Origin: a virus
Taxonomy: Duplodnaviria; Heunggongvirae; Uroviricota; Caudoviricetes
Virus record (IMG/VR): IMGVR_UViG_2579778652_000007
Span: 1-29,045 of that record
Direction: 5' to 3' (one strand)
DNA length: 29,045 nucleotides
The position numbers and the translations under genes are program-made. Shown here one piece after another: positions 23,916 to 28,284 of the stretch. How positions within the stretch are numbered: the stretch's first letter is position 1; each line of letters starts with the position of its first letter. The notes beneath the pieces are model-generated. The model had not been told where the DNA came from. It saw nothing but the letters and a program-made list of their open reading frames with translations, and did no database searches.

Positions 23916-24959
23916 GTGAAAGCCGTAATTACTCCCTTTGTACAAAAAGAGCTTGGCGTCGCCACATTCAAAGTGGATCAGGAAGTCAGAAAGCTGGTGG
24001 AGGCTGGCCGTAAATTTATTATGGAGCCGGTGCCGCGTGAGTTAATCGAGCACATGGAAGACGGCCTCGTTGTTACCGAGCAAACCATGGCAACAAATGA
24101 GGCGTTGCAGCCGTTTTTTAACAGCGATGAACTGTTTCGCCGTATTGGTGGAATTGACTCGCTGGTGGCGTGGTTGCGCAGGAAAGAGGGGCAATGCCAG
24201 GCCGCAGATCGTAGCTGGTGTGACAACCATATTGTCCACGCAGAACGAGACAATAGCGCGGTGTTGTTGTGCTGGCATCACGATAACCATTACCGGATGC
24301 GTGGTTTTAATGAGCTGAAAGAAACGCTGCACAATAATCGCGTTAACTGGATACTGGATGTCGCCCGTCAGGAAATGGGCCTTTCAAATAGCCATGATTT
24401 AAGTATTCAGGAGCTGTGCTGGTGGGCTTTCATGCGCAACATGATGCACCTGATGCCGGAAGAAGTCTGCCGCATATCAATAAATAAGATGAAGGCTACT
24501 CCGCAGGATAGCGGACCTCTGAAAGAGGCGGATATTCGCCCGTATGACGATCGCGCTACAGCATATGTTCAGATGATGGAAGAACGCGCCGCGCCGATGC
24601 GTGCAAAAGTATGCCCTGTGGATGTTGACTCCGACCCAGGTATGGCGCATTTCAAAATACCAAAACTTCAATCGCTAAAATTGCCCGAGTACATGGACTT
24701 TGTGGCTTCCCGTCCATGCTGTGGCTGTGGAGCTGCGGGAGCTGGCGCTCACATTACGCCTTATATCGTTCGTCATAGTCGATTATGCGCGCATGACATT
24801 TATGCTATTCCTCTGTGCCAGTCATGCCAGCGTGATATTGAGCGTGACCGCGATAATTGGGAGAAGACGCACGGTAGGCTGGCGATGCATCAACGATTGT
24901 TCTTTGATTACGCGCTTGGAGTCGGCGCTATCACAAGTCACTCGTCGAGCGTTAGATAA
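23916..24959 (+). CDS. Hypothetical protein with C-terminal Cys/His cluster
   Basis: 347 aa; GTG start with AAAGG upstream; C-terminal [17 protein letters not shown]...[18 protein letters not shown]. Confidence 0.65.
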
Positions 24960-24960
24960 A

Positions 24961-25002
24961 ATTGCTCTAATGTATTGCTATTTCTTTAATCGAGGTTATT
25001 AT
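24961..25002 (+). promoter_or_regulatory. C1-operator-like 17-mer ATTGCTCTAATGTATTG (14/17) overlapping -35 of a sigma70-like promoter (TTGCTA-16-TATTAT) upstream of lpa-like gene
   Basis: Operator 24961-24977; -35 24975-24980; -10 24997-25002. Confidence 0.55.
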
Positions 25003-25047
25003 ATTCGACGTTGATTAGTTGACATGGGCTAATCAGTAGGTGACAGG

Positions 25048-25500
25048 ATGTTACTTAACTGGCAGGGACGCCACTTCATGGAAATAAATCACTCACGAAT
25101 AACATCGTACGAGATTGCGGATTACATGATCCGCACTAAATCTCTTCTATCAGCGAAAGAACTCGCAGCAATTCTTGAAAAGGAATACCCGCATCTGGAT
25201 GTCGATAAGCGCGATGTTTATCTGCGCTTAAAGGCTATCGCTGTGTCTAAGTATTCGTCTGTTTTGATTGATGACAGTACACGCCCACGTAGATTTCAGA
25301 TCCACTCTCTGAATCCTGAATTCTTTCGCCGCAGCCGCGCTCCGCGCCGGTTTGATGAAAAACTCCAGAACGAACTCTATATGACGCAGGACGAAAAGGA
25401 ACGCCGGGAGCACCAGCCTTGGGTGATGGCGCGTCAACTTTTCAATAAGGTGGTCCGTCAGCACCGTCATTACGGTAATGCCACATCCGCACGTATCTGA
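25048..25500 (+). CDS. lpa: Putative late-promoter activator (Lpa-like) by position
   Basis: 150-aa basic ORF immediately upstream of pacA and downstream of an operator-overlapped promoter; alternative start ATG 25078; no direct motif. Confidence 0.5.
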   Translation: MLLNWQGRHFMEINHSRITSYEIADYMIRTKSLLSAKELAAILEKEYPHLDVDKRDVYLRLKAIAVSKYSSVLIDDSTRPRRFQIHSLNPEFFRRSRAPRRFDEKLQNELYMTQDEKERREHQPWVMARQLFNKVVRQHRHYGNATSARI

Positions 25501-25586
25501 TTGATTGCTTGCCCGTTCCGGGCCTTTTGACATGTGACTTTCGTTACCCTCGCGTCAAAAAGAGTTTTATACGAAAGGAAGCATAA

Positions 25587-26780
25587 GTGACCTGGGACGA
25601 TCACAAGAAGAATTTTGCTCGCCTGGCGCGAGATGGTGGTTACACCATCGCACAATATGCCGCCGAGTTTAATCTCAACCCAAACACCGCACGTCGTTAT
25701 CTCCGTGCATTCAAAGAAGACACCGGAACAGCGGACAGCCGTAAGCCAAATAAGCCTGTCAGAAAACCACTAAAAAGCATGATCATTGATCACGCTAATG
25801 ATCAACGTGCAGGTGATCACATTGTGGCTGAAATGGCTGAAAAACAAAGAGTTAATGCTGTTGTCAGTGCCGCAGTCGAGAACGCGAAGCGCCAGAATAA
25901 GCGCATAAATGATCGTTCTGATGATCATGACGTGATCACCCGCGCCCACCGGACCTTACGTGATCGCCTGGAACGCGACACCCTGGATGATGATGGTGAA
26001 CGCTTTGAATTCGAAGCGGGCGATTACCTGATAGATAACGTTGAAGCGCGGAAGGCCGCGCGCGCTATGTTGCGTCGTTCCGGAGCTGATGTTCTGGAAA
26101 CCACTCTTCTGGAAAAGTCTCTTTCTCATCTCCTTATGCTGGAGAACGCCCGGGATACGTGTATTCGCCTGGTGCAGGAAATGCGCGATCAGCAAAAAGA
26201 CGATGATGAAGGTACTCCGCCTGAATACCGTATCGCGAGCATGCTAAACAGCTGTTCCGCGCAGATAAGCAGTCTGATCAACACCATTTACAGCATCCGG
26301 AATAACTATCGAAAAGAAAGCCGGGAGGCGGAAAAGCACGCTTTGTCTATGGGGCAAGCTGGCATTGTTAAGCTGGCATACGAACGAAAGCGTGAAAATA
26401 ACTGGTCAGTTCTGGAAGCGGCTGAATTCATCGAGGCGCATGGAGGGAAAGTGCCGCCCCTGATGCTGGAGCAAATCAAAGCCGATCTGCGTGCTCCTAA
26501 GACAAATACCGATGATGAGGAAAGGCAAACTGCCGTCGGTGGCCCTTCTCTTGAAGATCTGGACAAAGTTGCGCGAGAACGGGCCGCCAACCGCCGCGCC
26601 GATGCCGCATTGTGGATTGAGCAGCGTAGGGAAGAAATCGCCGATATCGTTGATACAGGCGGTTATGGAGATGTTGATACTGAAGGTGTATCAAACGACC
26701 CATGGCTGGAACAAGACCTGGACGAAGACGAGGAGGAAGATGAAGAAGTTACCCGCAAGCTATACGGGGATGATGATTAA
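25587..26780 (+). CDS. pacA: Terminase small/pac-recognition subunit (PacA-like)
   Basis: 397 aa; GTG start with AAGGAAG RBS; gene contains the pac hexamer cluster; acidic C-terminus. Confidence 0.8.
25781..25967. other. pac packaging site: clusters of TGATCA/G hexamers, each containing GATC
   Basis: Left cluster 25781-25786, 25788-25793, 25800-25805, 25815-25820; right cluster 25911-25916, 25923-25928, 25934-25939, plus 25962-25967; about 90 bp between clusters. Confidence 0.8.
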
Positions 26781-28267: not shown

Positions 28268-28284
28268 CTTGCTCTAATAAATTG
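28268..28284 (+). promoter_or_regulatory. C1-operator-like 17-mer CTTGCTCTAATAAATTG (15/17)
   Basis: Begins 4 nt after the pacB stop. Confidence 0.55.

Follow-up and report, generated by a model that had tools for sequence, protein, structure and literature searches.

With high confidence, we find that the window (the whole stretch of DNA analyzed, 29,045 nt) comes from an SJ46/RCS47-like relative of phage P1 that carries the P1-type Olpa/Plpa operator–promoter unchanged, and that the palindrome in the lpa leader is a separate element, i.e., a 5'-terminal hairpin of the lpa mRNA with a most likely protective role. Positions 24700 to 25600 are 99.7% identical to Salmonella phage SJ46 and 98.1–98.2% identical to P1 and P7, and this high identity assigns the source element, by sequence similarity, to the P1-like phage-plasmids (Punavirus). 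The gene order around the site (humD, phd, doc, pdcA, pdcB, lpa, pacA, pacB) is that of P1; in both elements Olpa/Plpa lies between pdcB and lpa and is followed by LPpac, pacA, and pacB. The features of this region are as follows.

24961–24977, plus strand: C1 operator, ortholog of P1 Op94/Olpa, monovalent and asymmetric, identical to P1 and P7 at 17 of 17 positions (protein_bind feature in M95666, AF234172, and AF503408).
24975–24980, plus strand: −35 hexamer TTGCTA of Pr94/Plpa, invariant in six diverged lineages.
24997–25002, plus strand: −10 hexamer TATTAT of Pr94/Plpa after a 16-nt spacer; relatives have TATTAT or TATCAT with unchanged spacing.
25010, plus strand: predicted transcription start (G), transferred by alignment from the homologous P1 start in M95666.
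25011–25036, plus strand: hairpin H1, core 25012–25018/25029–25035 with flanking G-U pairs and loop GACAUG.
25048–25500, plus strand: lpa (gene 10) with the limits of the P1 annotation, encoding the late promoter activator; an alternative in-frame start lies at 25078.
25532–25550, plus strand: LPpac, the Lpa-dependent late promoter ahead of pacA, with −22 box ATGTGACTT and −10 TACCCT, identical to the annotated P1 LPpac.

The operator reads ATTGCTCTAATGTATTG and agrees with the C1 consensus ATTGCTCTAATAAATTT at 14 of 17 positions; both this consensus and the control of Lpa by C1 have been described for P1 (PMC8546580). Its last three nucleotides are the first three of the −35 hexamer. Allowing up to three mismatches, the consensus is matched six times in the window, compared to 0.14 matches expected from shuffles, and five of the six fall on annotated P1 operators (Op82, Op86a, Op86b, Op88, and Op94). 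Because of this excess, the operator is statistically solid by itself, whereas promoter and palindrome require outside evidence. The ortholog of P1 Op83/Oppp (10204–10220, minus strand, CATGCACTAATTAATTT) was missed by the scan since it has four mismatches to the consensus. Op82, Op86a/b, Op88, and Op99a–e of P1 share the asymmetric 17-bp consensus and typically overlap sigma-70 promoters, and four of these operators were found at orthologous places in the window. Compared to them, Op94 is monovalent and has the most divergent 3' half (GTATTG versus AAATTT), because the same half serves as the −35 hexamer. The position of the operator over the −35 is retained in relatives whose Lpa is only 65–71% identical, and the pattern ATTG[C/T]TCTAAT..ATTG is common to all diverged lpa lineages.

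An earlier note, made from the letters alone, had described a 17-mer overlapping a TTGCTA −35 with a TATTAT −10 located 16 nt downstream. Both lie exactly where it placed them; the 17-mer is base for base P1 Op94/Olpa, and the TATTAT is the annotated P1 −10. As a sigma-70 promoter, TTGCTA-16-TATTAT scores 9 of 12 hexamer positions and falls within the 16–18-nt spacing range. Matches of this kind occur at chance level in the stretch (two found, 1.7 expected), and the promoter is therefore called from its homology to the one mapped in P1. In P1 record M95666 (the gene 10/phd/doc submission), the same 17 bp are labeled ‘c1 repressor binding site, regulation of gene 10 expression’, and −35, −10, RBS, and gene 10 start are marked as well. 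The ‘Transcriptional initiation site of Pr94, G at 4030’ of this record corresponds to G25010 of the window, 7 nt past the −10. AF234172 carries the labels ‘monovalent C1-controlled operator Olpa; former Op94’ and ‘sigma 70 promoter Plpa; former P94’, and the P7 record (AF503408) notes ‘Op(lpa); regulates expression of lpa, pacA and pacB’. Lehnherr et al. 1992 (J Bacteriol 174:6138) reportedly determined the start site by primer extension and observed binding of C1 to Op94; in the same work, the co-repressor Bof/Lxc is said to aid C1 in P1, with Bof being needed for full repression.

A four-way alignment showed that the operator, both hexamers, the whole leader, and the lpa start are identical to P1 and P7. 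Differences from P1/P7 within 24930–25090 are restricted to four SNPs (24941, 24950, 24996, and 25007). Two of them distinguish the promoter region from P1 Plpa, namely T24996 (G in P1) immediately 5' of the −10, and G25007 (C in P1) between the −10 and the start. At 24996, P1, P7, and each of the 82 relatives sampled from IMG/VR and genomes have G instead of T. Operator identity, promoter, and start site are thereby supported through homology to the P1 experiments, and nothing in the analysis contradicts the operator–promoter reading. We also noted an antisense promoter-like site (ATGTCA-16-TATAAT, minus strand, 25025 to 24998, 10 of 12) that overlaps Plpa; it is probably a chance match, with its −35 lying in the non-conserved loop of the leader hairpin. 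The TTGACA in the same loop (25019–25024) was likewise rejected as a −35, as no −10 follows and the loop is not conserved.

Lpa is essential and required for the late promoters (PMC10695390; PMC8198154), and it activates the 11 late promoters of P1 (PMC8198154; PMC8546580; PMC10695390). The product encoded in the window matches Pfam BPP1_LPA (E = 2.3e-57) with residues 15–145 only. Based on the P1 model, C1 would bind in the lysogen to the asymmetric 17-bp operator over the −35 and exclude RNA polymerase from this moderate sigma-70 promoter. Upon inactivation of C1, transcription would begin at G25010, and the Lpa then made would activate the late promoters, among them the neighboring LPpac downstream, such that packaging and morphogenesis would be gated via the single C1 site at the lpa promoter. 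The proposal of the earlier note that the repressor gates the late-gene activator, and hence the pac and late operons, is supported by the P1/P7 annotation and by the intact LPpac. A C1 homolog was not found in the 29,045-nt window by tblastn. In RCS47, c1 sits beyond an icd/ant module that follows pacB, and here it would be expected past the end of the window; as the window is without a c1 gene, we infer a cognate C1 repressor for the source element from relatives such as RCS47. What sets the SJ46/RCS47-like source element apart from P1 is the icd/ant module, along with one additional operator-like 17-mer between pacB and c1. This C1-operator-like 17-mer (CTTGCTCTAATAAATTG) lies at 28268–28284, 4 nt past pacB, and 28285–29045 matches the icd/ant (immI-like) module of RCS47 and JL22, where P1 has c1. 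The C1–Olpa/Plpa switch is already known, textbook P1 biology, and its novelty here is nil; by sequence comparison, the source element is a new carrier of Olpa/Plpa with trivial differences from P1.

The palindrome TGATTAG-N10-CTAATCA had been placed under an operator heading in the earlier note and left uninterpreted. It is indeed present and exact, with 7-nt arms (25012–25018 and 25029–25035) that are 10 nt apart and transcribed as nt +3 to +26, while the operator role did not hold up, since the pairing is conserved and the sequence is not. As RNA, H1 folds into seven Watson–Crick and three G-U pairs (−9.3 kcal/mol, z = −4.05) and leaves one unpaired 5' nucleotide. Shuffling the 118-nt region produced a perfect inverted repeat of at least 7 nt in 5.5% of cases, and 14% of the 118-nt tiles of the window contain one; the repeat alone is thus marginally beyond chance, and its significance comes only from relatives. 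We therefore compared diverged lpa loci from Cronobacter phage JK004, Salmonella plasmids CP077703 and CP053320, and IMG/VR contigs L092 and L095, together with a P1-type variant from E. fergusonii. Lpa of JK004 is 65% identical (67% in the tblastn match). All diverged loci retain TTGCTA, the 16-nt spacer, and TATTAT or TATCAT.

Six diverged lpa lineages have a hairpin at about +1 to +28 of the predicted transcript, each differing in sequence. The arms in the relatives are AUUGGUUG/CAACCAAU; UGGUUGAG/CUCAACCA; AUUAG.UGAG/CUCG.CUAAU; UGGUUAGUC/GACUAACCA; and UUGGUUAACCG/CGGUUAACCAA, and between the window and CP053320 the H1 core differs by a single A-U to G-C swap. In each of the six lineages the leader hairpin has a z-score from −3.3 to −5.5. 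The start sites of the relatives are predicted, and the hairpin begins 0–2 nt after the predicted start. For covariation, a covariance model was built without the P1-type sequences and then used to align nine distinct leaders; a plain MAFFT alignment sets the P1-type hairpin one column out of register, and the covariance-model alignment was used instead. In this alignment, seven of nine pairs of the H1 helix show changes on both sides and 96% of cells are paired, figures that come from only about six independent lineages and from a structural alignment that is fitted by the model and leans to structure. None of 500 shuffles attained the observed covariation values (computed over all three leader helices), and the signal collapsed when the 3' partners were slid by 1–3 columns. 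RNAalifold predicts the same H1 helix. Conservation of the hairpin by compensatory change is thus an observed result of the present comparison. Polymorphism within the P1 type (34 gaplessly aligned loci) was uninformative on H1, because the whole of lpa is equally invariant. Wider scans of genome contigs and IMG/VR, together with one metagenome pattern scan, yielded nothing beyond L092, L095, and a further JK004-like copy, and Rfam 15 gave no family match up to E = 10 in 24800–25300.

Several other explanations of the palindrome were weighed. One would make it a DNA-level site, i.e., a second operator for C1 or another dimeric regulator that would act as a roadblock just past the start. In its favor, the 7-bp arms are perfect inverted copies of each other across a 10-bp spacer, centered at about +14, and CTAAT, present in both arms, is also the core of the C1 operator. 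However, C1 operators are asymmetric 17-mers, and neither arm comes within three mismatches of the consensus. In the relatives, the arms are wholly different (CAACCAAT, GACTAACCA, GGTTAACCAAT) although the upstream C1 operator is conserved there, which argues against a protein operator. Furthermore, the pairing makes use of G-U, which would be mismatches in DNA, and owing to these G-U pairs folding favors the sense over the antisense strand in five of six lineages. We consider such a DNA site highly improbable. It is also improbable, if somewhat less so, that the repeat arose by chance and has no function of its own. The repeat frequencies in shuffles and tiles given above and the absent Rfam match would fit this reading, but not the retention of a hairpin at one position in six lineages despite sequence turnover and with compensatory changes.

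Two further roles were tried and rejected. An intrinsic terminator or attenuator would require a U-run, and H1 is followed by GUAGGUGACAGG; as no lineage has a U-run after the hairpin, H1 is not a terminator, and no terminator-like site was found on the plus strand of 24500–25700. An autoregulatory Lpa late promoter in the leader was assessed with a 9-bp −22 box inferred from ATGTGACTT and TAGTCATTT, followed by a −10 hexamer 4 nt downstream. The candidate AGGTGACAG agrees with the AAGTNACTT-like box at only six of nine positions, and the hexamer that would serve as −10 (TTACTT or TTGCTT) has no A at its second position.

With the pairing conserved and the sequence not, H1 is most likely a 5'-terminal RNA hairpin that stabilizes the lpa mRNA. 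The palindrome would be transcribed as part of nt +2 to +27 and form the very 5' end of the message, where H1 most likely shields it from 5'-end-dependent decay by RppH and RNase E. Secondary structures at the 5' end stabilize E. coli mRNAs, and both RppH and RNase E need single-stranded 5' ends (PMC3997798). Known 5'-terminal stabilizing stem-loops to which H1 can be compared are found in the leaders of ompA and papA (Emory, Bouvet and Belasco 1992, cited in PMC3997798). Set beside this type, H1 starts 0–2 nt from the 5' end, is without a U-run, and leaves the ribosome-binding site free; its pairing rather than its sequence is conserved, and its stabilizing role is proposed by analogy. It differs from the ompA/papA type in its short P1-type stem. 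H1 is not annotated in the P1 and P7 records examined (M95666, AF234172, and AF503408), and the leader hairpin is apparently a small, so far unannotated addition of a known kind.

Downstream of H1, the block 25037–25073 is nucleotide-invariant or nearly so across lineages, while the H1 arms and the downstream codons have diverged. Two further hairpins are predicted in it by folding and by RNAalifold.

25038–25056, plus strand: hairpin H2, AGGUGACA-GGA-UGUUACUU, with loop GGA at 25046–25048; it encloses the annotated Shine–Dalgarno sequence and ATG 25048.
25060–25073, plus strand: hairpin H3, UGGC-AGGGAC-GCCA, whose loop AGGGAC carries a second GGA at 25066–25068, 9 nt upstream of ATG 25078.

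Five of the eight H2 pairs are invariant, two show one-sided changes with the pair kept, and one is broken where the ATG has become AAG or ACG. H3 is without variation, and the comparison speaks neither for nor against it. At the place of ATG 25048, the annotated start, L092 has AAG and L095 has ACG. A frameshift by a 1-nt insertion separates this codon from the lpa frame in L095 and CP053320 (L010); in the latter, the insertion leaves an 11-codon upstream ORF whose TGA overlaps the second ATG. This second ATG (25078) is invariant, and lpa of JK004 is annotated from it. The N-terminal extension is absent from Lpa of phage D6, and Pfam BPP1_LPA begins at residue 15. Because the first ATG is lost or shifted in L092, L095, and L010, and in view of the JK004 annotation, the Pfam start, and D6 Lpa, ATG 25078 may be the functional lpa start, at least ancestrally. 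Judged from the compared sequences, the conservation of block 25037–25073 is independent of the annotated start codon.

One lead for this block is CsrA-type translational control within 25037–25077. Host CsrA, bound to the GGA motifs of the H2 loop (ACAGGAUGU) and of the H3 loop, would limit Lpa synthesis, with H1 acting as stabilizer or tether; in this scheme, the H3 loop presents CAGGGAC over the Shine–Dalgarno sequence of ATG 25078. Folding places both GGA motifs, which are 20 nt apart and unchanged in every lineage, in predicted hairpin loops. The first GGA is followed by U, A, or C, a variation that destroys ATG 25048 in two lineages yet keeps CAGGA(U/A/C)G. The H2 contexts are CAGGAUG, CAGGAAG, and CAGGACG, and the H3 context is CAGGGAC, or AAGGAC in one lineage. 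The repeats of E. coli CsrB, counted on the genomic copy confirmed by Rfam RF00018 (380 bits), include CAGGAUG six times, CAGGAAG twice, and CAGGACG, CAGGGAC, and AAGGAC once each. In the CsrA SELEX consensus RUACARGGAUGU, ACA and GGA are invariant, with GGA in hairpin loops (PMC2896534; PMC4347634). CsrA-repressed leaders such as glgC and ColE7 cel (PMC2896534), the latter a precedent on an extrachromosomal element, share with the predicted fold of the lpa leader two GGA motifs in short hairpin loops about 20 nt apart, one upstream and one over the Shine–Dalgarno sequence, and the lpa motifs are CsrB repeat variants.

However, this is a resemblance only, as the SELEX match is imperfect, lacking the R between ACA and GGA, and the motif is frequent in the window. 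CAGGAHG occurs there in 25 copies, and its chance occurrence in the 68-nt leader is about 3%. The arrangement is not shared by D6-type leaders, no link between CsrA and lpa was found in the literature searched, and the reading was formed after seeing the data. Moreover, the conservation of the block may reflect nothing more than its use in ribosome binding and translation start. We regard CsrA control as a tentative and rather unlikely reading. Equally doubtful, in our estimation, is the broader proposal that the 68 nt from 25010 to ATG 25078 form a post-transcriptional control module, in which a covarying protective hairpin is combined with an invariant pair of GGA loops, and CsrA or another RNA-binding factor would set Lpa translation from the start at 25078. 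Over the whole window, the 25 copies of CAGGAHG compare to 9.3 expected from dinucleotide shuffles; possible causes are Shine–Dalgarno plus ATG contexts and codon usage.

Other lpa loci were encountered in the searches. In D6-type phages, whose Lpa is about 32% identical, an unrelated hairpin rich in G+C lies directly upstream of the lpa start codon (L005, 1455–1497; L011; L172–L200), with about −15 to −19 kcal/mol and the Shine–Dalgarno sequence GGGGGA in its 3' arm; since the 3' arm contains this sequence, the predicted fold suggests translational masking in that lineage. Some conjugative IncF plasmids of E. coli (L269 = CP142539; H90–H92) carry an N-terminally truncated lpa (residues 39–150), which in L269 adjoins IS26 and is without the operator–promoter; judged from their sequence, these copies look like remnants of P1-like elements. 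A 2.9-kb contig labeled ‘MAG: Bacillota bacterium’ (L008, JAEXLD010000103.1) contains the P1-type pdcB end, operator, leader, and first 58 lpa codons, and its Bacillota label is most likely a binning or contamination artefact.

In P1, Olpa/Plpa is known as the checkpoint that separates the early from the late program, and the intact site only confirms the standard cascade from C1 via Lpa to the late genes in the source phage-plasmid. The modest added value lies in the leader, with its 5' hairpin kept by compensatory evolution, followed by an invariant block. If the leader elements set the level or timing of Lpa, they would add a second, post-transcriptional layer to a textbook switch; the leader module, if real, would tie the timing of the early-to-late switch of P1 to host physiology, and its elements would be useful for engineering P1 and P1-like phage-plasmids.
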